NCBI GenBank assembly: GCA_025361065.1
Contig: JANYAY010000143.1
Coordinates: forward strand, 5,972-69,971
DNA from: Deltaproteobacteria bacterium
GTDB lineage: Bacteria; Desulfobacterota; Syntrophia; Syntrophales; Smithellaceae
DNA length: 64,000 nucleotides
Direction of reading: 5' to 3'
Shown here: in pieces, positions 7,336 to 50,269 of the stretch
How positions within the stretch are numbered: position 1 is the first letter of the stretch
Layout of the letters: each line of letters begins with the position of its first letter
The notes under the pieces: model-generated
What the model saw: the letters and a program-made list of their open reading frames with translations, nothing else
What the model was told of the DNA's origin: nothing
The model's database searches: none
Position numbers and translations under genes: made by a program

Positions 7336-8657
7336 TCAACCCAATAGATTACTCCCTACTCTAGCTGGTGTTTTATCCTTTGTATTCATTCGTTTGATCA
7401 GGGTCTCCAGGTATCTGGACTTTACCTGGCGGCTCGCCATCGCTTGTTTAACGGGGGGCAGTTGGAGGATGACACCGAGAATAGCCGCCATGGCCCGATG
7501 ACTGAAGAAAGCCTGATTGTCGAAAATAAGATTTTGCAGTTTTCCCCTTTCAATGGCCATCACAACTGCCAGATGAACTGAATTCAACGGTGTTATGACC
7601 CTCGCGGAACGTGATTTTAAGGCAATCCGCTTTTTCGGACAGACGCCGGCACAAAGGCCGCAACCGAGGCATATTTCTCTGTGCAGCCGGGCTTTTTTGC
7701 TTTCGGGCTGCGGGGATTATTCGCGGAAACGAGGCTCAGGGCGGCAACGGGGCAGATGTTAACGCACTGGCCGCAACCCGTACAGCTTCCTTCCTGAATC
7801 TGGGGCAGGAAATTTGTCGTATGCACAGGATGCAGAAGGCCGAAACGCCTGGCTGCGATCATAGCCTCGCAGCAGCAGCCACAACAATTGCAGATGAAAT
7901 TGACCTTCTCGCGGACATTGGAACCGAACTGAACCAGTTTTTGATCATAGGCGACCTGGAGCAAATCCAGGCATTCCTCCGCACTAACCTGTCGGGCATG
8001 GCCGTGTTTGATCAGCGATCCCGCCGCCACGTTAAAGGTCATGCAGATCTCTTTTCGGGCGGCACAGTCACGGCCCAGATGCTGCATTTTATGGCGGCAG
8101 TAACAGATGCCGATGGCCCGGAAGGAAGCTGTTTTAATGACTTCCGTGGCCCGTTCATAATCGAAAACGGCAAGGCTGAATTCTTCGGTAAGGGATGGTT
8201 CGTGGATAAATACACGGCCCAAATGTGTTTCTCCCTCGGTAAAAAGAACCTTTATAAAGTCCTCTTCCACATTGAGATACTGATGGAAAAGTTCGCTGAG
8301 CATTTTCTGGTCAATGTCACTGCGGATCCTCATGAGAGAAAACTCAAAAAAACCGGCCATGGGAGGGGGAAGAACATAGGTTTGCTCCCCATCTTCCTCG
8401 ATATCAAGAAGAATTGTCCGGCCGGCCAGATCATCCAATGTTTTCTGAGCAGATGACAGCTTCATTTTCCAGATGCGCGCCGCATGACTTGCCGAAAATG
8501 GTTTTATGGGAAGGAGTGCTACCAGGGCGGCATCTTTTGGGGTGAAGAGGATATTCAGGATTTTATAGAGTGTGTCCGCCGGGGGCGCTCCCTGGGGAAA
8601 ACGATTCAGCCGGTCCACTAGAGCTGCAAAGCCCGTCTTAATCAGGTGATGGGTCAT
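7336..8657 (-). pseudogene. di-cluster 4Fe-4S protein interrupted by a frameshift in a homopolymer run
   Basis: The 346-aa ORF (7617-8657) carries the first CTGCGQCVNICP motif and a Cys-rich CNCCGCCCE block. The second ferredoxin motif (CLGCGLCAGVCP) is readable only in the frame of the downstream 83-aa ORF (7336-7587). The two frames overlap around the T6 run at 7693-7698. Confidence 0.7.
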
Positions 8658-36866: not shown

Positions 36867-38612
36867 ATGGCTAAAAAAACTACATATGCGGCACTGGAAG
36901 AGAGAGTCCGGATCCTGGCAGACGAAAACAGGGCTCTTGTGTCAGCGGGTGAACATCAGCGAAAACAACTGGAGGAGTGTATAAGATTCGAAAAGGACCT
37001 CCGGGAGAAAATCTGGAAGGAACTGGAACAGGTTCTGGAATTTGAGAAACTTCTCTCCGAGATTTCCGCAACCTTCACGAATATCCCTGCCAAGGAGGTG
37101 GATCGGGAAATCAAGGACATACTCCGGCGTGTTGCAGGCATGTTTGGACTCGAACGTGGTTCCGTCATGCAATATTCTAATGATCTCGGACAGATTTGTG
37201 CGACACACTCGTGGGCGAGAGAGGGGCTTCCGGAGTTTTTTGACCTCTCTGAAGACGGCACTTTTATTACGAATCAACATTTTCCCTGGGTTACTAAAAG
37301 GATGTCCCATCAGGAAATCGTGTTTTTTTCGGACGTTGCTGAATTGCCCAGGGAGGCCAAAAAAGACAAACAGACGTTTCAAAAGTTGGGGGTGAAATCC
37401 GGAATATCCATACCCTACTTTGTTGAAGGTTCCTTCTTGTTTACCGTCACATTCGGATCTACCCGCTCAGGAAGCTCCTGGCCGGAGGACTTGATTCATC
37501 GGCTTAGACGCCTCGGAGAGATCCTGTTGAATGCCCTTCTGCGGAAGAATGCAGACGAGGAAATCCAGAAGGCCTTTTCCGAGATCCGGGAGTTGAAGGA
37601 TCGCCTGCAGGAGGAGAACATCCTTCTCCTGAAAGAGATCAAGACCATCAGGAAGCATCCTGAAATCATCGGAGAGAGCGATGCGATGAAAAAGGTCCTC
37701 GCCAGAGCAGAGCAGGTGGCGAAAGCCCAGACGACCGTGCTCATCCTGGGTGAGACCGGCACGGGTAAGGAACTGGTCGCGCGGGCCATTCATGGTTTCA
37801 GTGCACGGAAGAACCGTCCTATGGTTACTGTAAACTGCGCCGCTCTGCCTGCTACCCTGGTGGAGGCCGAGTTGTTCGGTCGGGAAAAGGGGGCCTACAC
37901 TGGTGCCCTTTCCAAGCAGGTCGGGCGCTTTGAAATCGCCGATGGGTCAACCATTTTTCTCGACGAAATCGGCGAATTGCCCATGGAGATCCAGGTCAAA
38001 CTGCTTCGTGTCCTGGAGAGAGGGGAGTTCGAGAGGTTGGGAAGTTCGAAGACTTTGAGAGTTAATGTGCGGGTGATCACTGCGACCAATCGAGACCTGC
38101 AAAAGGCGATTGAGGAAGGCAGATTCAGGGAAGACCTCTATTATCGTTTGAATGTCTTTCCCATCCAGATACCTCCTTTGAGAGAACATACGAACGACAT
38201 CCTTCCTCTCACATGGTCCTTTATCAAGGAGTTCAGCCATGCCATGGGCAAACCGATAGACTCGATACCGAAGGGCGGTCTCGACGCAATGCTTTGCTAC
38301 CCCTGGCCCGGCAATATCAGGGAACTTCGGAATCTTATAGAGCGGGCGATGATCGAGAGCAGGGGCAAAACCCTTATTGTGAAATTGCCGGCGCGTCACA
38401 GTACCAGGATATCTCACGCCCTAACCATGGAAGAATTAGAATGCGAACATATCAAAGACATATTGAAGAAAACCAATTGGCGAATCAGGGGCGCAAACGG
38501 CGCGGCGGAGATCCTGGGGCTCAACCCCAGCACCCTGTATGCCCGAATGAAGAAGCTTGGTGTCGAACGCCCCCGGGCACATCCATATCCTGACGAACCA
38601 TCCAAATATTGA
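36867..38612 (+). CDS. sigma-54-dependent transcriptional activator (coiled-coil + GAF sensor, AAA+ domain, Fis-type HTH)
   Basis: Walker A GETGTGKE, the GAFTGA variant GAYTGA, an ESELFGHE-like region and the C-terminal HTH AAEILGLNPSTLYARMKKLG. There is no receiver domain. Confidence 0.9.
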   Translation: MAKKTTYAALEERVRILADENRALVSAGEHQRKQLEECIRFEKDLREKIWKELEQVLEFEKLLSEISATFTNIPAKEVDREIKDILRRVAGMFGLERGSVMQYSNDLGQICATHSWAREGLPEFFDLSEDGTFITNQHFPWVTKRMSHQEIVFFSDVAELPREAKKDKQTFQKLGVKSGISIPYFVEGSFLFTVTFGSTRSGSSWPEDLIHRLRRLGEILLNALLRKNADEEIQKAFSEIRELKDRLQEENILLLKEIKTIRKHPEIIGESDAMKKVLARAEQVAKAQTTVLILGETGTGKELVARAIHGFSARKNRPMVTVNCAALPATLVEAELFGREKGAYTGALSKQVGRFEIADGSTIFLDEIGELPMEIQVKLLRVLERGEFERLGSSKTLRVNVRVITATNRDLQKAIEEGRFREDLYYRLNVFPIQIPPLREHTNDILPLTWSFIKEFSHAMGKPIDSIPKGGLDAMLCYPWPGNIRELRNLIERAMIESRGKTLIVKLPARHSTRISHALTMEELECEHIKDILKKTNWRIRGANGAAEILGLNPSTLYARMKKLGVERPRAHPYPDEPSKY

Positions 38613-38710
38613 CTCCCAAATTGCCTGCCTTCGCGTCAACCATAAGCGACTCCATTAAATAAACGTTAAAAGTACAGCTAGATACACAATCTGTGATCTA
38701 TTCCAGGCAC

Positions 38711-38726
38711 TGGCATGAACTTCGCA
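38711..38726 (+). promoter_or_regulatory. sigma-54 (-24/-12) promoter
   Basis: TGGCATGAACTTCGCA compared with consensus TGGCACG-N4-TTGCW. GG and GC are at the correct 10-nt offset, with two mismatches. It lies about 40 nt upstream of the ABM start and just downstream of the activator gene. Confidence 0.6.
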
Positions 38727-38766
38727 GTTCACAAGAAGCGAACAGTTGCAGGGGAGGGGGTGCGGA

Positions 38767-39150
38767 ATGATCATTTCAGCCGTCAGGATCGCGGCGGGGC
38801 CCAAGACGAGAGACGAAATGCTGGCGATTTTGTTTTCAGTGAAAGGGCCGACCGAAAGCGAACCGGCGTGCATCAGTTGCCGCATCTACACGGAACCTCG
38901 AAACGATAAGAACATTACCTATGAAGAGGTGTGGCAGGATGAAGCCGGCCTCTGCCGGCATCTCCGCTCGCCTCATTACCGCAAAGTACTTGCTGCAATG
39001 GACCTCTCCAGCGAGCCTCCGGAAGTTAAATTCAGCACGGTTTTGAGGACTGAGGGAATGGAGGTTATACAAAGGGTCCTGGGTAAAGCGGATCCTGTAG
39101 CGATGAGTTGGACGAAAGCGGCAGCCTCGCGGTCCGATCGCGAAGAATAA
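38767..39150 (+). CDS. ABM/Dabb-fold (antibiotic-biosynthesis-monooxygenase-like) protein
   Basis: 127 aa from ATG 38767 (GGAGG upstream). The pattern CISCRIYTEPRNDKNITYEEVWQDEAGLCRHLRSPHY fits ABM domains. Confidence 0.55.
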   Translation: MIISAVRIAAGPKTRDEMLAILFSVKGPTESEPACISCRIYTEPRNDKNITYEEVWQDEAGLCRHLRSPHYRKVLAAMDLSSEPPEVKFSTVLRTEGMEVIQRVLGKADPVAMSWTKAAASRSDREE

Positions 39151-39196
39151 GATTCTGATCGGGGTAATTACCCCGAAAAACAAGGAGGAAACGGAA

Positions 39197-40642
39197 ATGA
39201 CATATCCTAGCGTTTACCCCACGGGGGCGACCATCTACAATCCTGACAAGTGTTGGAATGGCTATACTATCTATCAGGCAAGGGAACTGGGGGCTCTGCT
39301 TATCGACATGAACGGAAGCGAGGTGAAGTTGTGGAAGGGACTTCATGGTTTTCCCAACCAGATCCTGCCGGGCGGCTACGTTATGGGTCACACGGGGCTC
39401 AGGCCCACTGCCTTTTCTTCGCAGGACCAGACCGACCTCGTGCAGGTGGATTTCGATGGAAAGATTGTGTGGAAGTTCGACAGATGGGAATTCATTGAGG
39501 ACCCGGGCGAGGAGCCCCAATGGATGGCCCGTCAACACCACGATTTCCAACGCCAGGGAAACCCGGTCGGTTATTACGTGCCGGGCATGGACCCCTGTGT
39601 AGATCACGGCAATACCTGGATTCTCTCTCACAAGAACGTCATCAAAAAGGAGATTTCCGAAAAGCCGCTTCTCGACGATGTCTTCCTGGAGGTGAACTGG
39701 GAGGGCGATGTGGTCTGGGAGTGGTCGTGCAGCGATCATTTCGAGGAGCTGGATTTCAGCGAGGAGGCCAGAAACATCCTGGCCCGCAACCCCAACATAG
39801 TGTCCTCCGGCGGTGGTGTGGGGGACTGGATGCACATCAACTGCATGTCACTGCTGGGGCCGAACCGGTGGTACGACGGAGGGGATCAGCGCTTCCACCC
39901 CGACAACATCATCTGGGACGCCCGCGAGAGCAACATCCTGGCTATTACCAGCAAGAAGACCGGCAAGATCGTCTGGAAGGTTGGTCCGGACTATAATGCC
40001 AGCAAGGCCCTGAAGAAGCTCGGCTGGATCATCGGACAGCATCACACCCACATGATCCCCAGGGGACTCCCGGGGGAGGGGAACATCCTGGTTTACGACA
40101 ACGGCGGATGGGCGGGTTACGGCGCGCCCAACCCCGGTGCCCCCATGGGCATCAAGAACGCGCTGAGGGACTATTCGCGGGTGCTGGAATTCGATCCGGT
40201 CACGCTGGAGATTGTCTGGCAACATACGCCCAAGGAGGCAGGGCTGCTCCACCCCACGGACAGCAACCGCTATTACAGTCCTTTCATCAGCTCCGCCCAG
40301 CGGCTGCCGAACGGCAACACCCTGATCACGGAAGGCTCCGGCGGCCGGATCATCGAAGTTACGCCCGAACACGAGCTGGTTTGGGAATACATCACTCCCT
40401 ATTGGGGCTCCATGCTGCACATGAATATGATTTATCGGGCCTACCGTGTGCCTTATGAGTGGGTGCCCCAGTTGGAGCGGCCCGAACAAACCCCCATCCG
40501 GCCGATCGATGTGACCACCTTCCGCGTGCCCGGCGCTGCGGCGCCCGGTCACAGGCAGGTCACCGAAGTTGAAGGGGTTCGGCCGTACCAGGGCGATGCG
40601 GCCTTGTGCGTCCAAGTCGATGTGGAAACCGAAAGAAAGTAA
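39197..40642 (+). CDS. aryl-sulfate sulfotransferase (ASST) family beta-propeller protein, no signal peptide
   Basis: 481 aa with a strong RBS (AAGGAGGA). The N-terminus TGATIYNPDKCWNGYTIYQ...LIDMNGSEVKLW and later blocks (HHDFQRQGNP, LPNGNTLITEGSGGRIIEV) match my recollection of the ASST/Arylsulfotran_2 family. Confidence 0.55.
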   Translation: MTYPSVYPTGATIYNPDKCWNGYTIYQARELGALLIDMNGSEVKLWKGLHGFPNQILPGGYVMGHTGLRPTAFSSQDQTDLVQVDFDGKIVWKFDRWEFIEDPGEEPQWMARQHHDFQRQGNPVGYYVPGMDPCVDHGNTWILSHKNVIKKEISEKPLLDDVFLEVNWEGDVVWEWSCSDHFEELDFSEEARNILARNPNIVSSGGGVGDWMHINCMSLLGPNRWYDGGDQRFHPDNIIWDARESNILAITSKKTGKIVWKVGPDYNASKALKKLGWIIGQHHTHMIPRGLPGEGNILVYDNGGWAGYGAPNPGAPMGIKNALRDYSRVLEFDPVTLEIVWQHTPKEAGLLHPTDSNRYYSPFISSAQRLPNGNTLITEGSGGRIIEVTPEHELVWEYITPYWGSMLHMNMIYRAYRVPYEWVPQLERPEQTPIRPIDVTTFRVPGAAAPGHRQVTEVEGVRPYQGDAALCVQVDVETERK

Positions 40643-40675
40643 AAGAACAACCAAAACAATAAGGAGAATAAAGCG

Positions 40676-41737
40676 ATGAGACATTTTTCCAGGTACCTTT
40701 TTATCTTGACACTGAGTGCGGCCATAATCTTTTCCGGCGCGGTCGCCGGATGGTCTGCGGAAAAGTTCGAGCTTAAACTTGCATGCGAGTATATGGACAG
40801 GCACCCCACATCCGTCAATGCGTTTATCCCCTGGACCAAGAAAATGGGAGAACTAAGCCAGGGAAGGCTCCAGATCCAGTTCTACAACCCCAACTCCCTG
40901 TGCCCGAATAATCAAAACTATGCCAGCACCGTGGCCGGGGCCGTGGACATCGGGGCCGGCGGAACAATCTATAATGTAGGCAAGTTCAATCTCGCGGAAA
41001 TCACCGAGCTGCCTTTTCTTTTCAACGGGTCAGAGTCCGCCAGCCTTACCATGTGGGAACTCTACAATCGCTTTCCGGAGTGGCGCAATGAGTACAAGGA
41101 AGTGAAGATGCTCTGGCAATGGGCCAGCGCCCTGTTCCAGCTGCATACGGTGAAAAAGCCGGTCCGCACCCTGGAGGATCTCAAGGGCCTCAAGATCATT
41201 ACGTGGAGCGCGTCCGGCAGCAACCTGATCCGGATGCTCGGCGCAAACGCGGTCGAAGGGAAACCAACGGACACCTATCTGGCGCTGGAGCGGGGCATGG
41301 CGGACGGCGTTCTGTGTCCTCTTGCACCTTTGCGTTCTTACAAGATCTCGGATGCAGCCAAGTACCATACCATCGTCAACCTGAATGCCAGTGGTTTCTG
41401 GGCCGGAATGAACCAGGCCAAGTGGAACAGCCTGCCGCCGGACCTCCAGAAGCTCATCAGCGATAGTACCGGGGTAAAGATGGCTCAACTGGCCGGCAAG
41501 ACTCTGGACGAGGCTGCCATCCAGGATTCGCAGTTCTTGAAGAAACAGAAGCACGAATTCTTCGTGCTGAGCCCTGCCGAGCAGGAGAAATGGCGTGTGA
41601 AGCTCCAGCCTGTCACCGAAGAATGGCTCAAGAAGATGGAAAAGAAAGGGTACAAGAACGTCAGAGAGATCTATAAAACGACGGTCAGCCTGAGCAAACA
41701 ATACAATCAAAAAACCAAAGGCGGTTATGCGGAGTAA
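40676..41737 (+). CDS. TRAP transporter substrate-binding protein (DctP family)
   Basis: A signal peptide followed by a DctP-like sequence (ELPFLF, GLKIITW, ALERGMADG). Confidence 0.85.
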   Translation: MRHFSRYLFILTLSAAIIFSGAVAGWSAEKFELKLACEYMDRHPTSVNAFIPWTKKMGELSQGRLQIQFYNPNSLCPNNQNYASTVAGAVDIGAGGTIYNVGKFNLAEITELPFLFNGSESASLTMWELYNRFPEWRNEYKEVKMLWQWASALFQLHTVKKPVRTLEDLKGLKIITWSASGSNLIRMLGANAVEGKPTDTYLALERGMADGVLCPLAPLRSYKISDAAKYHTIVNLNASGFWAGMNQAKWNSLPPDLQKLISDSTGVKMAQLAGKTLDEAAIQDSQFLKKQKHEFFVLSPAEQEKWRVKLQPVTEEWLKKMEKKGYKNVREIYKTTVSLSKQYNQKTKGGYAE

Positions 41738-41860
41738 ATGAACAACATTATCCCTGTCCGGGTTTCATCCCCACTTGGGAGAGCCCGGCAGGAAGGGGAA
41801 AACCGCCCCGACGCAAAGCGATAGAAGTGCCCGCAACGGGCCAAGAAGGAGAAGTTCACT

Positions 41861-43762
41861 ATGACTTCAGGATTTTTCGACTCGGCAGCGGCTGTTCTGG
41901 AAAAGGGAGTAAGGCCGGCCTCCAGATTCTTCAATTACATTGCCTGTGCAGTCCTCTGCATCATGCCCATCCCGGTGCTTGTGGATATCTTCCTCCGGTA
42001 TACATTTTCCTATTCCATCCCGGGGGGAATCGAGCTTCAGGAATTCCTGATGCTGATCCTCGTGTTCTTCGGGTTCGCCGCTGTAGAACGGGAGGGAGGC
42101 GGGCATATCCAGATTGACCTGGTGGTCGGGAAGCTCAAAGGCCGGGCAAAGAATGCCGTCGAGAGCTTCATCTACAGTATTTCCTTTCTGATCATGATCC
42201 TCATCTCCTCCCAACTCGTGAGCCAGGGCATCAAGAAGTTCCAGAACAGTGAAGTGAGCAGATCCCTGGAGCTCCCGGTAGCGGTGTTCTTTTTCCTGGC
42301 TGCCCTGACAGTCTTTCTGCTGGCCCTGGTCCTGCTCGTGAAACTCCTGCAGTCCCTCGGCCGCACAGCGCAGCAGGGCGGATGGGGATGGTCCATTGGG
42401 GCAGTACTGATGGCCTGTGCCCTGATCTTCGGGCCCATGGCGGGGTTTATACCCGGGGGGCTGAGCTCCTCTACCTGCGGGATCCTGGGCATGTTCTTTC
42501 TCTTTGCCCTCCTCTTTCTGGGGGTGCCCATCGGGTTCGGCATGGCCATCACGGGTTTCGTGGGCATGATTGTGCTCAACAAGTCTCTCCCCCCCTCCCT
42601 GGCCATGCTGGGTATAGGGCCTTATGATACCGGGGCCAGCTATATGCTCACCGTTGTGCCCATGTTCATCCTCATGGGCGAGCTGGCCTTTCACTCCGGG
42701 ATCAGCGGCGATCTCTTTGAGGCGGCCAGCAAGTGGTTCGGCCGTATGCGGGGCGGAATTGCCATGTCCGCGGTGGCAGGGTGCGCCGGTTTTGCCGCGA
42801 TCTGCGGCGACAGTCTGGCCACAGCCGTCACCATGGGGTCAATCTCCATCCCGGAGATGAAGAAGAAAAATTACGATATGGCGCTGGCTACCGGATCCCT
42901 GGCTGCCGGGGGTACGTTGGGCATCCTCATCCCGCCGAGCGTAGGATTTATATTTTATGCCATTGTGACGGAGGAATCCATCGGCAAGCTTTTTGTGGCC
43001 GGCATCATTCCCGGCATCCTGCTGGCCATCCTCTTTATCCTCTACATCGCCGTCATCACCCGGCTCAGGCCCCAGTTGGCGCCCCAGGGGGAACCCTGCA
43101 CATTCCGGGAGAAGCTCATTGGCCTCAAAGGGGTCCTGGGCATGCTGACGCTCTTCATCGTGGTTCTGGGCGGAATTATGACCGGACTATTCACTGCCAT
43201 TGAGGGGGGCGCTGTGGGAGCAATCGGGGCCTTTGTCTTCGCACTCGCTAAACGCCGCCTGCCCTTCGCCACGCTGGTCGCCGCCCTCAAGAGCACTCTC
43301 ACTATCACCTGCAAGCTGCTCATGATCCTCATGGGCGTGGGCATCCTGGGATACTTCCTGGCAGGCACCCGGCTTCCCTTTTTTCTGGCCGATCAAATCA
43401 GCGGGATGGGGGTAAGCCGTTACGTCGTCTTTGCCTTTGTCATTATCTTCTTCCTCATCCTGGGGTGTCTGCTGAACGTCATCCCCATGATTCTGCTGGT
43501 GTTGCCCACCATTTTCCCCATGATCACGGCCCTGGGTTTTGATCCGATCTGGTTCGGCGTGATATGCGTTGTCATGATGGAGGCGGGCCAGATCACACCG
43601 CCCATCGGCGTGAACGTCTTTGCCATCTCCACCGCGTCCGGGGTTCCCATGTACACGGTCTTCCGGGGAATTTTCCCATTTTTCCTGTGTATGATGCTCC
43701 TGGTTGTGCTTCTGGTCATTTTCCCCGGACTGGCCACGTGGCTGCCCAGTGTGATGTTCTGA
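41861..43762 (+). CDS. TRAP transporter fused small/large permease (DctQ-DctM)
   Basis: 633 aa and polytopic. The N-terminal roughly 170 aa are DctQ-like and the remainder is DctM-like (ATAVTMGSISIPEMKK, PPIGVNVF). Confidence 0.9.
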   Translation: MTSGFFDSAAAVLEKGVRPASRFFNYIACAVLCIMPIPVLVDIFLRYTFSYSIPGGIELQEFLMLILVFFGFAAVEREGGGHIQIDLVVGKLKGRAKNAVESFIYSISFLIMILISSQLVSQGIKKFQNSEVSRSLELPVAVFFFLAALTVFLLALVLLVKLLQSLGRTAQQGGWGWSIGAVLMACALIFGPMAGFIPGGLSSSTCGILGMFFLFALLFLGVPIGFGMAITGFVGMIVLNKSLPPSLAMLGIGPYDTGASYMLTVVPMFILMGELAFHSGISGDLFEAASKWFGRMRGGIAMSAVAGCAGFAAICGDSLATAVTMGSISIPEMKKKNYDMALATGSLAAGGTLGILIPPSVGFIFYAIVTEESIGKLFVAGIIPGILLAILFILYIAVITRLRPQLAPQGEPCTFREKLIGLKGVLGMLTLFIVVLGGIMTGLFTAIEGGAVGAIGAFVFALAKRRLPFATLVAALKSTLTITCKLLMILMGVGILGYFLAGTRLPFFLADQISGMGVSRYVVFAFVIIFFLILGCLLNVIPMILLVLPTIFPMITALGFDPIWFGVICVVMMEAGQITPPIGVNVFAISTASGVPMYTVFRGIFPFFLCMMLLVVLLVIFPGLATWLPSVMF

Positions 43763-43847
43763 TGGCCCCTCAGGCGGGAGAGGAAATATTGTGTGGGGAA
43801 GGCTGCCCTTCTCAAAGACCGGGTTTTGAACTGTACATCAGGGGGAT

Positions 43848-45236
43848 ATGACAATGAAGGAATTTGATGTGGTTGTCATCGGTGGAGGTCCCGGCGGATA
43901 TGTGGCCGCGGTCAGGGCAAGTCAACTGGGGCTGAAAGTGGCGCTGGTCGAAAAGGAACACTTAGGTGGTGTTTGCCTGAACTGGGGTTGCATTCCCACC
44001 AAGTCCCTGCTGCAGAACGCAGAGGTGATCCATCTTCTGTCCAAGGGCAAAACCTTTGGTTTCCAGTTCGATAATCTCTCTGTGGATTATGCCGAGGCCC
44101 AGCGCCGCAGCCGCAGTGTGGTGAGTCGTCAGACCAGGAGAGTCGGCATCCTCTTGAAGAACCATGGTATTGCCGTCCATGAGGGCTTGGGCAGGCTCAG
44201 GAGCGCCCGGGAGGTGGTGATTGAACCCTCCGGTGAGATGCTGCAGGCCGGGAATATCATCCTGGCCACCGGGGCGAAACCTCGCCCTATGCCGGGAATC
44301 CCCTTTGACGGCGAGCGGGTGATCAATTTCCGGCAAGCCCTGGAACTGACGGAAGTGCCGCAGGATATTTTGATCGTGGGCGCAGGTCCGATCGGCATGG
44401 AGTTCGCAACGCTCTGGAGTCGCTACGGGGCCAAAGTGACCGTGGTGGAGATGATGCCCCATGCCCTGCCCCTGGAGGATGAAGAGATCTCCGCCGAAGC
44501 CGAGAAGCAGTTCAAACGGGCGGGAATCAGGATCATGACGGGCGCCCGGGTGGAAGGCATCGTCCATCGGGGAGAAGCCCTGGATGTGACAGTGGTGACA
44601 GGGGAGAAAAACGAGATCCTTCCGGCGCAGAAAGTCCTGTCCGCCATCGGCTTTGCTCCCTCGACCGAAGACCTGGGACTCGAGACGGCAGGAGTCAAGA
44701 CCTTTCGCGGGCGTATCGAGATCGATGACCGGATGTCTACGTCGATCCCCGGCATTTACGCCATCGGAGACGTGACGGGGAAACTGGGATTGGCCCACAC
44801 GGCCTCGGCCCAGGCGATGATTGCCGCAGAGGCGATTGCCGGGCGTAAAACAGAAACCTTGTCTTACGTGAACATTCCGCGCTGCACCTATGCCTATCCG
44901 GAGATGGCTTCGGTGGGGCTCACCGAAAGGCAGGCCCGGGAGCAGGGTCATGACGTGATCACGGCCAAGTGCCCCTTTGCCGCCAACGGCAAGGCCGTCG
45001 CCATGGATGAGAATTTCGGCTTTGTCAAGATTGTGGCCCAGGTCGGGAATATGAGGATCCTGGGGGTGCACCTGATCGGCGCGCATGTGACGGAAATGAT
45101 TGCCGGGCCGGCATGCCTGATCGGGATGGGGGCAACGGCCGAACAATTGGGTCTCACCGTCCATCCCCACCCCTCACTGAGTGAGGCCCTCATGGAGGCG
45201 GCGCATGCGCTCATGGGTCGCGCGATTCATATATGA
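43848..45236 (+). CDS. lpdA: dihydrolipoyl dehydrogenase (E3)
   Basis: GGGPGGY FAD motif, redox-active disulfide GGVCLNWGCIPTK and the C-terminal HPHPSLSE His-Glu motif. Confidence 0.9.
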   Translation: MTMKEFDVVVIGGGPGGYVAAVRASQLGLKVALVEKEHLGGVCLNWGCIPTKSLLQNAEVIHLLSKGKTFGFQFDNLSVDYAEAQRRSRSVVSRQTRRVGILLKNHGIAVHEGLGRLRSAREVVIEPSGEMLQAGNIILATGAKPRPMPGIPFDGERVINFRQALELTEVPQDILIVGAGPIGMEFATLWSRYGAKVTVVEMMPHALPLEDEEISAEAEKQFKRAGIRIMTGARVEGIVHRGEALDVTVVTGEKNEILPAQKVLSAIGFAPSTEDLGLETAGVKTFRGRIEIDDRMSTSIPGIYAIGDVTGKLGLAHTASAQAMIAAEAIAGRKTETLSYVNIPRCTYAYPEMASVGLTERQAREQGHDVITAKCPFAANGKAVAMDENFGFVKIVAQVGNMRILGVHLIGAHVTEMIAGPACLIGMGATAEQLGLTVHPHPSLSEALMEAAHALMGRAIHI

Positions 45237-45297
45237 TACAGTGACCCGCGTTTCAGAGTAGATGCTAAAATCAAATCAGGAATAAGGAGATGTTGTC

Positions 45298-46146
45298 ATG
45301 AGCAACACCGTCTATACAGCCACAGGTTGCAGTCGCTGCAAAATCGCCAAGAACTTCATGGATGAGCGGGGAATTGCCTACCAGGACTTCAACATCAAGG
45401 CTGACGGGAAGGAAGCCTTCGGGCAGTTTTACAGGACCAACCGAAGCGCCGTCTATCGTGGCAAGGAGGGGATTGAGTTCCCGGTATTCACCGATGGGAC
45501 GATCGTCCGCCAGGGCGTGGGCGTGGTCATCGCATTTCTCCATGCAGGTACGAGGCTGGACGGTTTTATCGGGCGGAGCGAACTTTCCCATGGCTGGATG
45601 GATGGGATCCATGTTTCCGAAGGCGACCCCGCGTTGACCGATGCTCTGGTGATGGTGTTGGGCTATATCAAGAGGCAGGGGATGAATCTGCAGCTTGATA
45701 CGGACGGAAGGAATCCGCAGGTGCTCGAGAGGCTGCTGGCGGAGAAGTTGGGAGACCGTGTGCAAATGGAGGTCAAGGGGCCATTGAACGTTTATGGAAG
45801 GATGCCGGGCCGGGAGATGGAACCGGCCGAAGTGAAGAAGACGATCGAGATTGTAACCCGATTCCCGGAGTACCAATTCCGGACAACCGTTGGCCCTGTT
45901 GTCCGGACGAAAGAAGAACCGCAGGAAATCGGTTACCTCACGCCCGATGAAGTTGCCCAAACAGCCAGGCTCATTCAGGAGTCGACCGGGAGCTACAAGC
46001 AGCCCTATGTGCTACGGATCTTCGAAACGGAGGGCGCTGCCGATGAAAGTCTGAGGTCCAGCGGGAAATTGACCTCCGCAGACCTGTTGGGGCACCGGTC
46101 CGCGGCCAGGAAATTCCAGGTGCAAACAGAGATCGAAAAGGTCTAG
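45298..46146 (+). CDS. fusion of a glutaredoxin/NrdH-like CxxC domain with a radical-SAM-activase-like core that lacks the CX3CX2C cluster motif
   Basis: N-terminus YTATGCSRCKIAKNFMDERGIAYQDFNI (the only two Cys in the protein). The remainder resembles NrdG/PflA-type activases (HVSEGDP in place of SGGEP, LQLDTDGRNP, QMEVKGPL). Confidence 0.55.
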   Translation: MSNTVYTATGCSRCKIAKNFMDERGIAYQDFNIKADGKEAFGQFYRTNRSAVYRGKEGIEFPVFTDGTIVRQGVGVVIAFLHAGTRLDGFIGRSELSHGWMDGIHVSEGDPALTDALVMVLGYIKRQGMNLQLDTDGRNPQVLERLLAEKLGDRVQMEVKGPLNVYGRMPGREMEPAEVKKTIEIVTRFPEYQFRTTVGPVVRTKEEPQEIGYLTPDEVAQTARLIQESTGSYKQPYVLRIFETEGAADESLRSSGKLTSADLLGHRSAARKFQVQTEIEKV

Positions 46147-46182
46147 GCGAAGGACAAGAATAATTTATCAAGGAGAATCGAG

Positions 46183-46581
46183 ATGTCCAAAGCAAATCCC
46201 ACCGACCGACTGTATTCCAAAGATCATGAGTGGATCAAAGACAATGGCGACGGTACATCTGTCGTCGGCATTACCGATTACGCACAGGAAATGCTGACGG
46301 ATATCGTGTTTGTGGAACTGCCCCCGATCGGCCAGATTGTTGGACAGGATGGGCCGCTGGCCGTAGTCGAATCCGTTAAATCCGTATCCGATGTTTACGC
46401 GCCGGTAAGCGGCGAAGTCATCGACGTCAACAAAACGTTGGAAGAAACGCCGGAGCTAATCAATCAGGACGCCTTCGGCGAGGGCTGGATTGCCAGGTTG
46501 AAATTGGGAAATGCCGCCGAAGTGAAATCACTTCTCAATGCTGCCGATTATGATGCTCTGATCAAAGAGGAAAAACACTAA
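46183..46581 (+). CDS. gcvH: glycine cleavage system H protein (lipoyl carrier)
   Basis: 132 aa. YSKDHEWI and the lipoyl-lysine motif VVESVKSVSDVYAPVSGEV are present. Confidence 0.9.
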   Translation: MSKANPTDRLYSKDHEWIKDNGDGTSVVGITDYAQEMLTDIVFVELPPIGQIVGQDGPLAVVESVKSVSDVYAPVSGEVIDVNKTLEETPELINQDAFGEGWIARLKLGNAAEVKSLLNAADYDALIKEEKH

Positions 46582-46582
46582 C

Positions 46583-46690
46583 GTGGATTATTGTCCCCAC
46601 AAGTCTGACGATATTGCTCAAATACAGGCGGCAAGAGGCATAGGAAGCGTCGAAGAATTGTTTGCCCATATCCCGAAAAATTGCGTTTAA
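46583..46690 (+). pseudogene. gcvPA: 5' stub of gcvPA (glycine dehydrogenase subunit 1), truncated after about 33 codons
   Basis: My translation from GTG 46583 gives VDYCPHKSDDIAQIQAARGIGSVEELFAHIPKNCV then a stop. This matches the conserved GcvPA N-terminus (Y-x-PH...DI...G-x-x-S-x-EELF-x-x-IP). It starts 1 nt after the gcvH stop, and similarity then ends. Confidence 0.6.
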
Positions 46691-46942: not shown

Positions 46943-47410
46943 ATGAAGAAAGTTGCCTACTCGGTTCTTATCCTCATCATGGCCATGTTTCTCATAAACC
47001 CATTGTCCAGTGAAGCAAGAGGAGGACATTGGGGAGGCGGTCATGGTGGAGGTTGGTGGGCGCCCTGGGCGGTAATAGGAGGGGCAGCTGTCCTGGCGTC
47101 TTATTATTCACCTTATTATGCACCTCCACAGGTGGTGATCCGCGAACAGCCTCCGGTTTATGTTCAACCTGATCCGCCGGTACCTCCATTATCGACTGGA
47201 CGGATCTTTGTCTATCCCCGGCAGGGCCAGAACGAAGAGCTACAGGCCAAGGATCGTTACGAATGCCATAACTGGGGTGTAAGCCAGACAAATTACGACC
47301 CGACTCAGCCTCCCAGTGGGACGCCGGAAGCCCAGTTGAACCAAATGCGGACTGACTATCAACGGGCGATGGGCGCTTGTCTTGACGGTCGCGGGTACAC
47401 CATGAAGTAG
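46943..47410 (+). CDS. secreted Gly/Trp/Pro-rich protein, function unknown
   Basis: A signal peptide, then ARGGHWGGGHGGGWWAPW, a hydrophobic stretch, a Pro-rich linker and a C-terminal Cys pair. GGAGGTGG RBS. Confidence 0.6.
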   Translation: MKKVAYSVLILIMAMFLINPLSSEARGGHWGGGHGGGWWAPWAVIGGAAVLASYYSPYYAPPQVVIREQPPVYVQPDPPVPPLSTGRIFVYPRQGQNEELQAKDRYECHNWGVSQTNYDPTQPPSGTPEAQLNQMRTDYQRAMGACLDGRGYTMK

Positions 47411-47858: not shown

Positions 47859-49151
47859 TTACCACAGCTCCTTATCCAGAATTTCAATGAACCTGGAGTA
47901 AGCCTTCCGGTCGCCCAGAATCGTGTCATGAGTGCAGTCAAAGCCGAATGTTTTAATCGCGCTATCGACCGCCCGCGCATCCAGGGCTTTTTCCCGGGAG
48001 AGTTTGTCATTTTTTCCATAAAAAATATAATGGTCAATCGTCGGGGACAACTTTTCTGCCATGGTGGTTTTGATAAAAGCGCTTTGGGTTCCCAGATCAA
48101 CCCAAATGGGGATGCTTTTATGCGTGATGATCTGCGAGAGATCGGCGGCTCCAAATCCACCCCAGGGGGTGGCGAACGACACAAAAAGTTTTATAAAATT
48201 ATTTTGTTTGTCCGAAGCATACCGGGTTAAAAAGGCTCGTGTTGTTAATCCGCCGACGCTGTGGGCAACTATAGCCATTTTCGAAAAGCCGTATTTTTTA
48301 TGGAGTTCCTGTAACTCATCGTTGAGCAGGGCTGCGGCAAGAGGAAGACGAATGCCCGACGGATAGTAAAAGAACCAGGGTTGATAACGGCTTCGGTCCA
48401 GACGCATGTAAAAATATATCCAGTTCTGCGGGCTGCCTTCTGCGCCGTGCACAAAAAGAATGGGGATTTTCCGGGGAGAATACTCTTCTGTGAGATAAAT
48501 GTGCGCGCCGAATGCTTTCATAAATGAGGATGGATTCCAATAGCCTGTCTGCGCGTTTTCCGGTGAAAAATATTCATGATAGATTTTTAATACCTGGCCG
48601 TTATGCGTCACCTGTTTGATGATTCCCTGATCCTTCTTAAACATCAAATCATCAGGGAGTGTCATTTTCCGGCCGTTGTCCCTGGCGGTCCGGATGACGA
48701 CGCCGGTGATAAGTTCGTTTTCGTGGATGGATATTTCTCCGGCGGCAGAAGGTGACCCGTAGGCGCCGGAAATTTCGTCATTTTCATAAATCCCGTTATG
48801 ATTGTAGTCCGTGATTGTGTAAATGTTGTAGCGTCCCTGGGACAGGTAGAGCATAAAAGCACCCTGGCCGTTGACGACTGCATATTCACCGAATGCCTTA
48901 TTGCCGTCCGCCGGACGATAGGTGATGATGAGAGTGGAAGCATTGACTTTATCAGTACTGATGATCCTGCCTTTAATAATGGCGGAATTATATGCCGGCA
49001 CATCGTTTTTTTCAGTCTGTTGAACCGGCCTTACCAGTATGTCATCCTTCTCGGGAATGCTCAGATAGCGGCAACTCACCATCCCGGAAAGTATGATGAC
49101 GGCTAAGGCGGATAACCCGACAAATCGGCAATAGTTCGATAGCCTGTTCAT
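47859..49151 (-). CDS. alpha/beta-hydrolase (lipase/esterase-like) lipoprotein with an N-terminal beta-sandwich region
   Basis: Signal/lipobox GMVSC. The nucleophile elbow is AHSVGG (GxSxG) within ILFVHG...IVAHSVGGL. Confidence 0.75.
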   Translation of the reverse strand: MNRLSNYCRFVGLSALAVIILSGMVSCRYLSIPEKDDILVRPVQQTEKNDVPAYNSAIIKGRIISTDKVNASTLIITYRPADGNKAFGEYAVVNGQGAFMLYLSQGRYNIYTITDYNHNGIYENDEISGAYGSPSAAGEISIHENELITGVVIRTARDNGRKMTLPDDLMFKKDQGIIKQVTHNGQVLKIYHEYFSPENAQTGYWNPSSFMKAFGAHIYLTEEYSPRKIPILFVHGAEGSPQNWIYFYMRLDRSRYQPWFFYYPSGIRLPLAAALLNDELQELHKKYGFSKMAIVAHSVGGLTTRAFLTRYASDKQNNFIKLFVSFATPWGGFGAADLSQIITHKSIPIWVDLGTQSAFIKTTMAEKLSPTIDHYIFYGKNDKLSREKALDARAVDSAIKTFGFDCTHDTILGDRKAYSRFIEILDKELW

Positions 49152-50269
49152 TTATTCTTTATTTCGCTCTCCAGATATTCAACAATCTTTTGATGGTTAT
49201 TTTCTCTGCCCAGATCAAGGGCTGTTTTCCCTTCGACGTTTTTAAAGTTCAATCCTGCTCCATTTTCCACAAGAAAAAAAGCTATTTTATCCGCTCCGTA
49301 TTGTGCCGCCAGCATCAGCGGTGTAAATCTATGCTGATCCTGGATATTGAGGTTAGCTTTCTTTTTAACAAGGATGGAAACAATATCAGACATTTTTTTA
49401 TGGACTGCCAGATGCAGAGCCGTTTGCCCCTGATTGTTTGCAGTGTTCATGTTCTGTGGTTTTGTCAGTAAAAAAGAAGCCACTGATGTGTAACCGCTCT
49501 GGATACTTTTCATCAAAGGCGTGTCGCCGCCGGCATCCTGCGCCGAGACCTCCGCTCCTCTGGCGATTAAAAGCCGGGTATTGGTTTCATCGCCTTTTCC
49601 CGCGGCCAAATGCAGCGGTGTCTTAAGGTCGTGATCTTTAATATTCACCCTGGCGTTATGATTGATCAGCAACGTAGCAAAGTCATAGAGCCGGTAGTCA
49701 ATCGCCATGTGCAGCGCCGTTTCTCCGGAACCGTTTTGGCTGTCGATCCCTTTCCCTGTTGCCAACAGCAGCGGAATACTATCCCAGCTGTTGTTGTAAA
49801 TTGCCCACATCAGAGCCGTGTAACCATATTTATCCTGTCTAACCGGGTCAGCGCCGGTCTGCAGCAATAACTCTACAATGCCCGGGTGGCGCTCATTGAC
49901 TGCAATCATTAAGGGCGTGAGGCCATCTGTGTCCGAATTATTGATATTGACCTTTTTGATAATGAAATACTCAGCCAGGCCTTCATGTCCGTATTGTATG
50001 GCGTACATTAAACCTGTCCACTGATAGGAATCGGTCATGGTGACGTCGATTACTTTTTTTTCCACCAGACGCATAATGTTGACGGTATCGCCTTTTCTGG
50101 CCGCGTCGAAGAAATAGACTTCCGGTGCGGCATACGCTGCTGCAACCTGATTGTGTTGCAGAATTTGTGGTGATGGACAGGCGCACAGGGAAATGACCAT
50201 GATCAATAACAATATTTTAATGTTTGAACCATGCATTTGAGATGAACTCCTGGCAAGGGATGCGTTCAC
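49148..50269 (-). CDS. ankyrin-repeat lipoprotein
   Basis: Lipobox SLCAC followed by about nine ANK repeats (e.g. GLTPLMIAVNERHPGIVELLLQTGADP). Its stop overlaps the hydrolase start (ATGA). Confidence 0.9.
   Translation of the reverse strand: MNASLARSSSQMHGSNIKILLLIMVISLCACPSPQILQHNQVAAAYAAPEVYFFDAARKGDTVNIMRLVEKKVIDVTMTDSYQWTGLMYAIQYGHEGLAEYFIIKKVNINNSDTDGLTPLMIAVNERHPGIVELLLQTGADPVRQDKYGYTALMWAIYNNSWDSIPLLLATGKGIDSQNGSGETALHMAIDYRLYDFATLLINHNARVNIKDHDLKTPLHLAAGKGDETNTRLLIARGAEVSAQDAGGDTPLMKSIQSGYTSVASFLLTKPQNMNTANNQGQTALHLAVHKKMSDIVSILVKKKANLNIQDQHRFTPLMLAAQYGADKIAFFLVENGAGLNFKNVEGKTALDLGRENNHQKIVEYLESEIKNK

Follow-up and report, generated by a model that had tools for sequence, protein, structure and literature searches.

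A glutaredoxin-like domain fused to a cluster-less radical-SAM activase barrel and co-inherited with a cytoplasmic ASST-type sulfuryl transferase

We analysed a 64,000-nucleotide stretch of DNA (hereafter, the window) from a Deltaproteobacteria bacterium of the Smithellaceae (assembly GCA_025361065.1, contig JANYAY010000143.1, positions 5,972 to 69,971) and characterized a 282-amino-acid protein, here called X, that is encoded by the open reading frame (ORF) at 45298-46146 of the forward strand. X is a glutaredoxin-like redox domain fused to a radical S-adenosylmethionine (SAM) activase barrel that has lost its iron–sulfur site, and its gene is inherited together with that of a cytoplasmic ASST-type sulfuryl transferase, the two forming a real, conserved and uncharacterised module. 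By analogy with known systems, X may act as a dedicated thiol-disulfide redox adaptor on the retired activase scaffold, in a relay from NAD(P)H through dihydrolipoyl dehydrogenase (Lpd), the glycine-cleavage H protein (GcvH) and X to the ASST-like enzyme, a proposal for and against which we consider the case evenly balanced.

Domain architecture of X

The gene is preceded by a ribosome-binding site (AAGGAG, 8 nt 5' of the ATG), and C11 and C14 are the only cysteines of the protein, which divides into two parts:

45298-45549 (+): X residues 1-84, NrdH/glutaredoxin-like domain with C11-S-R13-C14 (nt 45328-45339) and cis-Pro62 (Pfam, NCBIfam, Foldseek)
45550-46146 (+): X residues 85-282, linker and partial (beta/alpha) barrel derived from an NrdG2-type activase (NCBIfam, AlphaFold2, Foldseek, alignment)

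The N-terminal part matches Pfam Glutaredoxin (PF00462; residues 4-37, 25.3 bits versus a gathering score of 22.9), and the Pfam scan of X reported no other family. Foldseek comparison with the PDB placed it closest to NrdH (4hs1 and 1h75; TMt ~0.68), consistent with an initial annotation, made from the sequence alone, that had described residues 1-80 as NrdH/glutaredoxin-like. The domain combines a thioredoxin fold with an N-terminal CxxC and a cis-proline, and C11, C14 and P62 are invariant. Against the equivalog models for NrdH (TIGR02194), YruB (TIGR02196) and Grx3, X scored 28-32 bits, below the cut-offs of 86-90. Most positions conserved at ≥95% across 53 species lie in this domain; in the barrel only W100, G103, G137, N139, L143, E218, A223, R267, R271 and V275 reach that level. 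The conserved set includes several basic residues, namely R13 (inside the CxRC motif), K18, R49 and R54, plus R267 and R271 of the C-terminal helix.

The body from about residue 95 onward resembles the NrdG/PflA-type activases, as had been noted by eye. Residues 97-212 align with positions 59-177 of the 193-position NCBIfam profile for NrdG2 activases (TIGR02495; E = 3.3e-19, 69 bits versus a curated cut-off of 131.15), and the N-terminal profile segment that holds the cluster motif is left unmatched. With Pfam Radical SAM (PF04055), E ≤ 1 was not reached for X; some homologues have a precomputed match to this family. An AlphaFold2 model based on 29 homologues (predicted local distance difference test (pLDDT), 90.4; predicted template modelling score (pTM), 0.86) showed a partial (beta/alpha)6 TIM-barrel fold for the body, and Foldseek searches of the PDB returned PflA (8fo0, the top match), the PFL-AE domain 3can (TMt 0.71), NifB, BioB, LIAS, viperin and HemN, with a probability of 1.00 for PflA, NifB, BioB, LIAS, viperin and HemN. 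The C-terminal region is thus related to the radical-SAM superfamily by both sequence and fold; the lack of any such kinship was what would have undone the initial annotation. The barrel is without beta1, the CX3CX2C loop and GGE, and S107-E-G-D-P111 stands at the GGE position. An antisense ORF (45271-45960) was unsupported.

Origin of the barrel and loss of the cluster site

A profile search of 1.84 billion representative sequences yielded 2914 proteins at E ≤ 0.001. Among the matches listed that span at least 230 amino acids, 50 have an N-terminal CxxC and no CX3CX2C, and 29 are canonical relatives of ~250 amino acids with GCNFxCxxCHN (CX3CX2C) and GGE. All 29 canonical relatives keep CX3CX2C, and one of them (P0201) is a true NrdG2 given its 166 bits on TIGR02495. 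Among 120 close homologues of X, neither CX3CX2C nor GGEP was found in any (0/120 for each); CxRC is present in 112, the other eight being N-terminally truncated calls. Because these motifs have been lost family-wide, X is a cluster-less activase derivative and not a canonical radical SAM enzyme, which upholds what the initial annotation had concluded from the absence of the cluster segment and the presence of only the two CxxC cysteines.

Alignment with the nearest canonical proteins pairs HVSEGDPA with ISGGEPT, QLDTDGRNP with KLDTNGSNP, DRVQMEVKGP with DYVAMDVKAP and FPEYQFRTT with FPDYEFRTT. It is collinear from GW..G..S(G/E)G(E/D)P through the C terminus, and ~95 residues of X (glutaredoxin domain and linker) stand for the 55-60 N-terminal residues of the canonical proteins. 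Alignment and fold together confirmed the motifs that had been recognized by eye, namely HVSEGDP in the place of GGEP, LDTDGRNP, D-x-V-x-x-E/D-x-K and the C-terminal half-barrel. The family includes a second subfamily (X'), which is only 33-35% identical and has more degenerate barrel motifs (D-x-K, FRTT) in the same gene context.

Conserved gene neighbourhood

A scan of one genome per species recovered 64 loci with X, from Desulfobacterota, Bacillota (isolates of Desulfosporosinus, Desulforamulus and Desulfotomaculum), SAR324, Chloroflexota and Woeseiaceae. Neighbours within 5 kb were counted at 49 loci that had been retrieved with at least 3 kb on either side of X. An ASST-like gene accompanies X at 43 of these 49 loci (Desulfobacterota, Desulfosporosinus, Desulfotomaculum, Moorella and SAR324), whereas GcvH is found at 19, Lpd at 14, either of the two at 25, and ASST, GcvH and Lpd together at 8. 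The initial annotation had placed X between Lpd and a lipoyl protein, which is correct for the window, and both are frequent yet not constant neighbours across the loci (Lpd 14/49, GcvH 19/49); it had missed the near-constant partner, the ASST-like gene. In the window, the genes concerned are the following:

39197-40642 (+): cytoplasmic ASST-type sulfuryl transferase, 481 amino acids, in the same operon as X (Pfam PF05935, E = 9e-20)
43848-45236 (+): dihydrolipoyl dehydrogenase Lpd with redox-active C43/C48, GGVCLNWGCIPTK (TIGR01350, 541 bits versus a cut-off of 409)
46183-46581 (+): glycine-cleavage H protein GcvH with lipoyl-lysine K66 at nt 46378-46380 (PF01597, E = 1.8e-45; NF002270, 168 bits)

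An Lpd with CxxxxC and a lipoylatable carrier are thus encoded beside the CxxC protein in the window, and the lipoyl lysine is kept in 26/26 module GcvH proteins. The order of genes varies: seven Bacillota loci have gcvH-X-ASST-lpd, Moorella sulfitireducens has Crp | X-ASST-DctP-DctQM, and the second subfamily stands in ASST-X'-GcvH-Pyr_redox (L075) and X'-ASST-TctBCA (L077) arrangements. In Desulforamulus aquiferis (L032, 5539-13881), the genes run ASST - TrxR-like - GcvH - X - Lpd - LipB-like - LipA, and at L039 the gene immediately 5' of X encodes a TrxR-Trx fusion. The L032 ASST is of the classical type, cytoplasmic with an Ig-like N-domain, and both it and Lpd are split by frameshifts in the assembly. 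Two Lpd lineages and two GcvH lineages have been recruited, the GcvH type of the window differing from that of the Bacillota. Beyond these genes, recurrence is limited to organic-anion importers (TRAP, TctABC, permease and MFS) and regulators (GntR, IclR, Crp, LysR and sigma-54 enhancer-binding proteins).

Pairwise distances of X and of the adjacent ASST-like protein are correlated (Mantel r 0.47, a value reached in 0/2000 permutations), and the ASST-like protein is far more conserved (mean distance 0.30 versus 0.53 for X). The best hidden Markov model match (the NrdG2 family) and the NrdH-like N terminus would fit a degenerate NrdG/NrdH fusion that still serves anaerobic ribonucleotide reductase (RNR) or another glycyl radical enzyme. 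However, no radical could be generated without a cluster, no glycyl radical enzyme (and thus no NrdD partner) was present among the neighbour clusters found in at least five of the loci examined, and the conserved partner is ASST-like; we consider such a role scarcely credible, and the gene context excludes a class III RNR function.

Several apparent variants of X and of its neighbourhood were rejected or explained. Selenocysteine does not account for the 261-amino-acid, N-truncated homologues, as no in-frame TGA stands at the C11/C14 codons in the 64 loci. An ASST-X fusion ORF at L055 is a frameshifted assembly in which the C-terminal third of ASST is nonsense, and the long ORFs at L003, L020 and L027 are read-through by the ORF caller; no true ASST-X fusion was found among these four. 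At L013, codon 24 of X is a premature stop. At L076 (8001-9842), a gene for X' lies between a divergent TctBAC operon and a gene for a TauE/SafE-family (sulfite-exporter-like) permease, a single-locus hint that was dropped when BLAST of the other loci found no TauE homologue.

The ASST-like partner

Profile–profile alignment (hhalign) of the ASST-like protein with ASST of Escherichia coli CFT073 (probability 88%, E = 2.8e-6) pairs H213, N215, R243 and H283 with His356, Asn358, Arg374 and His436, active-site residues of the E. coli enzyme that include the sulfurylated His436 (PMC13426309); all four are invariant in the family, and no unambiguous counterpart was mapped for E. coli His252 and Thr501. 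The AlphaFold2 model (pLDDT 75.6, pTM 0.82) had as its top Foldseek match the Streptomyces sulfotransferase Cpz4 (9kf6, E = 5e-15). A sequence search against the PDB found nothing at E ≤ 1; profile–profile and fold comparison were needed to bring out these relationships. Cpz4, which belongs to caprazamycin biosynthesis, is the closest solved structure (9kf6/9kf4; 453 versus 481 amino acids), with only 18% identity, and a review of these enzymes mentions no redox partners for it (PMC13426309). The catalytic residues are thus in place, and the features of a periplasmic enzyme are absent: the N terminus, MTYPSVYPTGATIY, has no signal-peptide features, and in contrast to E. coli ASST, which has an Ig-like N-terminal domain, the protein has no Pfam match to Arylsulfotran_N.

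Cys471 (nt 40607-40609) is invariant in 57/57 locus sequences and in 120/120 database sequences (the best 120 of more than 6500 relatives, all ~480 amino acids long and at least 71% identical). It stands on an otherwise variable, acidic C-terminal tail, in which residues 467-481 have pLDDT < 50. The residues that precede it track the subfamily of X, being AALCV with subfamily 1 and GSG[VI]CV with subfamily 2. Members of this ASST-like clade (P0273, P0305, P0325, P0330, P0333 and P0344) carry the name 'thioredoxin' in NCBI/UniRef, which looks like propagated misannotation. In Desulforamulus reducens MI-1 (L072, CP000612.1 3503145-3520590), a lone tail-bearing ASST-like gene stands beside a Crp regulator, an Na_H_antiporter-family permease and an amino-acid permease, with no X, GcvH or Lpd within 8 kb; the same genome contains a second copy (P0359).

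A proposed dithiol relay and its alternatives

In the relay that we propose, NAD(P)H would reduce Lpd, Lpd the lipoyl arm of GcvH, this dihydrolipoyl arm the C11/C14 pair of X, and X finally Cys471 of the ASST-like enzyme, with TrxR taking the place of Lpd and GcvH in some genomes. The barrel of a true activase grips the glycyl loop at the C terminus of the enzyme that it activates, and the former activase barrel of X is for this reason a candidate docking module for the Cys-bearing tail. R13, K18, R49, R54, R267 and R271 may bind this tail in its acidic or sulfonated form, as conserved Arg and Lys residues around CxRC would suit such a peptide.

The most likely chemistry of the module, to judge from PAPS (3'-phosphoadenosine 5'-phosphosulfate) reductase and thioredoxin, would be a reduction that frees sulfite from a sulfate ester. 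PAPS reductase forms a thiosulfonate on a cysteine of its C-terminal tail, which thioredoxin resolves, and on this analogy we propose four steps: (1) an imported sulfate ester would sulfurylate His283; (2) the sulfuryl group would move to Cys471, forming S-sulfocysteine; (3) CxRC would release sulfite and turn into a disulfide; and (4) electrons from Lpd, delivered by GcvH, would restore the dithiol. Overall, the module would catalyse R-O-SO3(-) + NADH + H(+) -> R-OH + HSO3(-) + NAD(+). The occurrence of the module mainly in sulfate- and sulfite-reducing lineages fits the release of sulfite, and is no proof of it. The complete proposal, in which the ASST-like protein, X, lipoyl-GcvH and Lpd would together constitute an ATP-independent, NADH-driven sulfate-ester reductase that converts imported aryl or alkyl sulfates to sulfite via sulfo-His and S-sulfo-Cys, is a tentative one that we hold to be possible and rather doubtful.

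Several points weigh against the relay. Every electron-transfer step is read from gene linkage, and no more than about half of the loci (25/49) have Lpd or GcvH near X. X occurs without ASST within 10 kb at L017, L029, L039 and L076, and, conversely, X is missing beside the tail-bearing ASST-like gene of D. reducens MI-1. The low pLDDT of the tail could stem from a shallow alignment (≥71% identity). Finally, subfamily 1 of X keeps DTxGxN and D/E-x-K, the equivalents of the SAM ribose and carboxylate contacts, which leaves room for a small-molecule ligand. The barrel might accordingly still bind SAM or an adenosyl compound (PAP(S) or adenosine 5'-phosphosulfate (APS)) for a non-radical reaction or for regulation, with CxRC as a redox switch. 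DTDGRN and M-E/D-V-K of subfamily 1 are indeed homologous to SAM-contacting strands of the canonical relatives, but GGE is lost in all members, D-x-K and FRTT are degenerate in subfamily 2 despite the same gene context, and conservation at ≥95% is confined to ten barrel residues, so that we regard nucleotide binding as very unlikely.

The docking partner of the barrel could also be a different one. Just as lipoyl synthase binds octanoyl-GcvH, the barrel might dock the lipoyl-lysine arm of GcvH and not the ASST tail, so that X would exchange dithiols and disulfides specifically with GcvH; the sulfuryl group would then be accepted by the dihydrolipoyl arm itself or by CxRC working on free substrate. 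Electron flow would be unchanged, but the barrel would dock elsewhere and sulfite would leave from another site. The presence of LIAS and LipA among the Foldseek matches of X, of GcvH next to X at 19/49 loci and of LipA and LipB in the L032 module is compatible with this arrangement. The sequence kin of X are, however, NrdG2/PflA activases and not LipA, half of the loci lack a neighbouring GcvH whereas 88% have ASST, and the invariant tail cysteine would be left unexplained; docking of GcvH is therefore improbable in our view.

A third possibility is that X stands outside the catalytic cycle as a redox chaperone or maintenance factor that keeps C19, C178 and C471 of the ASST-like protein reduced or aids its folding, a cytoplasmic mirror image of DsbL/DsbI serving an ordinary sulfotransferase. 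E. coli assT does cluster with the dedicated oxidoreductases DsbL and DsbI (PMC13426309), and some tail-bearing ASST-like genes stand alone. Yet an NADH-linked flavoprotein and a lipoyl carrier, at times with LipA and LipB, would be a heavy investment for maintenance, and no sulfuryl-acceptor pathway gene is conserved nearby, which makes this role unlikely. The relay to the tail cysteine remains the reading that we prefer.

Comparison with known systems

The nearest systems in sequence are the NrdG2 activases and NrdH-like redoxins, and the nearest in logic are the Lpd-DlaT-AhpD-AhpC relay and the PAPS reductase/thioredoxin pair. With NrdG2 (TIGR02495) and PflA, X shares a barrel whose homology runs from the GW..G..SGGEP strand as far as the C terminus, including LDTxGxN, D-x-V-x-M-D/E-V-K-x-P and FP-D/E-Y-x-F-R-TT; unlike them, it lacks beta1 and the CX3CX2C loop, has SEGDP for GGEP and has no glycyl radical enzyme partner. 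The N terminus is like NrdH-redoxin and YruB-type proteins in its thioredoxin fold, N-terminal CxxC, cis-Pro and length (~80 amino acids), and differs in being fused to a 200-amino-acid barrel, in the invariant Arg of CxRC, in scoring below all NCBIfam cut-offs and in its reductant, which by analogy is likely to be a lipoyl protein and not thioredoxin reductase alone. The target of NrdH is a Cys pair on the C-terminal tail of its partner, and both NrdH and glutaredoxins act in this way on the Cys tail of class I RNR.

In Mycobacterium tuberculosis, a CxxC adaptor can receive its electrons from a lipoyl protein: they pass from NADH through Lpd, the lipoyl protein DlaT and the adaptor AhpD to the thiol-dependent enzyme AhpC, which is the logic proposed here. 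AhpD is all-helical, and the carrier of that relay is an E2 subunit and its end enzyme a peroxiredoxin, in place of GcvH and the ASST-type propeller. CysH (PAPS/APS reductase) resembles the ASST-like partner in having an invariant cysteine on a flexible C-terminal tail and a thioredoxin-fold reductant, and its S-sulfocysteine corresponds to the one that we propose; the folds are unrelated, and the donor proposed here would be a sulfate ester via sulfo-histidine and not a sulfonucleotide. The assT-dsbL-dsbI cluster of E. coli CFT073 likewise joins an ASST to dedicated thioredoxin-fold oxidoreductases (PMC13426309), but that system is periplasmic and oxidising, as it forms disulfides, whereas the present module belongs to the cytoplasm and is associated with NAD(P)H reductases.

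Novelty and implications

No Pfam or NCBIfam model above its cut-off covers the fusion, no curated family was found, and full-text literature searches for the architecture or the module found no description, in line with the initial annotation, which had not recognized the architecture from described families. Database names for X are "hypothetical", "glutaredoxin" and "PFL-activating enzyme/glutaredoxin". X combines known kinds of protein (an activase scaffold and a thioredoxin-fold redoxin), and its system-level function would be new if confirmed. It represents a natural radical-SAM scaffold that has neither cluster nor SAM motifs, is under selection across several phyla and is joined to another redox centre, and so bears on the reuse of enzyme-specific docking modules. 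If our reading is correct, X would be the first glycyl-radical activase scaffold turned into a thiol-redox docking module.

The module links sulfotransferases of the ASST type with a proposed dithiol relay fed by NAD(P)H and yields the hypothesis of reductive desulfation to sulfite. The physiological role of bacterial arylsulfotransferases (ASTs) is poorly understood (PMC13426309), and the hypothesis, if true, would supply a first such role for the ASTs of anaerobes. Sulfite would become available to sulfite-respiring bacteria without the ATP cost of sulfate activation, and organic ester sulfate would have an unrecognised entry into dissimilatory sulfur metabolism that bypasses ATP sulfurylase and APS reductase, such that sulfate- and sulfite-reducers could draw for their respiration on the ester sulfate that sediments and soils contain in large amounts. 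Cultured carriers of the module include Desulforamulus aeronauticus, Desulfosporosinus fructosivorans, D. nitroreducens and Moorella sulfitireducens.

Operon and flanking genes in the window

X and its partners belong to a co-directional block (+) consisting of a sigma-54 activator, a -24/-12 element, an ABM-like ORF, the ASST-like gene, TRAP DctP, DctQM, Lpd, X and GcvH. The further features of this block are as follows:

36867-38612 (+): sigma-54 enhancer-binding activator with a GAF sensor domain (Pfam Sigma54_activat, E = 1e-72; GAF; HTH_8)
38711-38726 (+): sigma-54 -24/-12 promoter element, TGGCATgaactTCGCA (consensus match, 2 mismatches)
38767-39150 (+): small ABM-like protein of 127 amino acids, the first gene of the operon (orthologue in L002 called as PF03992 ABM)
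40676-41737 (+): TRAP transporter solute-binding protein DctP (Pfam DctP, E = 3.5e-40)
41861-43762 (+): TRAP transporter fused DctQ-DctM permease (Pfam DctQ and DctM)
46583-46690 (+): 35-codon ORF, VDYCPHKSDDIAQIQAARGIGSVEELFAHIPKNCV and then a stop, directly after the gcvH stop (translation)

The activator, which has an orthologue in the same position in L002 and L007, is the probable regulator of the operon. Matches to the sigma-54 consensus are on their own insignificant (2 seen versus 10.5 expected by chance); we accept the -24/-12 element because its position is conserved in three orthologous spacers, TGGCAY-N5-TTCGCA being found in L002, L006 and L007 at a matching position amid spacers that have otherwise diverged. 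The ABM-like (antibiotic biosynthesis monooxygenase-like) ORF has no NCBIfam match and is found in the closest relatives only (L002, L006 and L007).

The 35-codon ORF reads, in an unscored comparison, like what we take to be the N terminus of GcvPA (a glycine dehydrogenase subunit) that is then cut off; it recurs in L006 (~7920-8030), and an AT-rich spacer lies 3' of it in the window. Such a gcvPA-like remnant suggests that gcvH of the window was captured from a gcvH-gcvP operon and, together with the distinct GcvH type, would imply that the H protein was captured independently. The G+C content of the operon (~38000-46600) is 0.53-0.585 versus 0.47-0.50 in the flanks, which is compatible with lateral acquisition of the module.

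Downstream of the operon, a 155-amino-acid predicted secreted protein (46943-47410, +) has a Gly/His/Trp-rich stretch, RGGHWGGGHGGGWWAPW, a Pro-rich middle and no Pfam match. Farther on, two adjacent genes on the reverse strand (49148-50269 and 47859-49151) encode proteins with hydrophobic N termini: one has ankyrin-like repeats by eye (TPLMIAV..., TALHMAI..., TPLHLAAGKGD), and the other, of 430 amino acids, has an AHSVGG motif that resembles the nucleophile elbow of alpha/beta-hydrolases.

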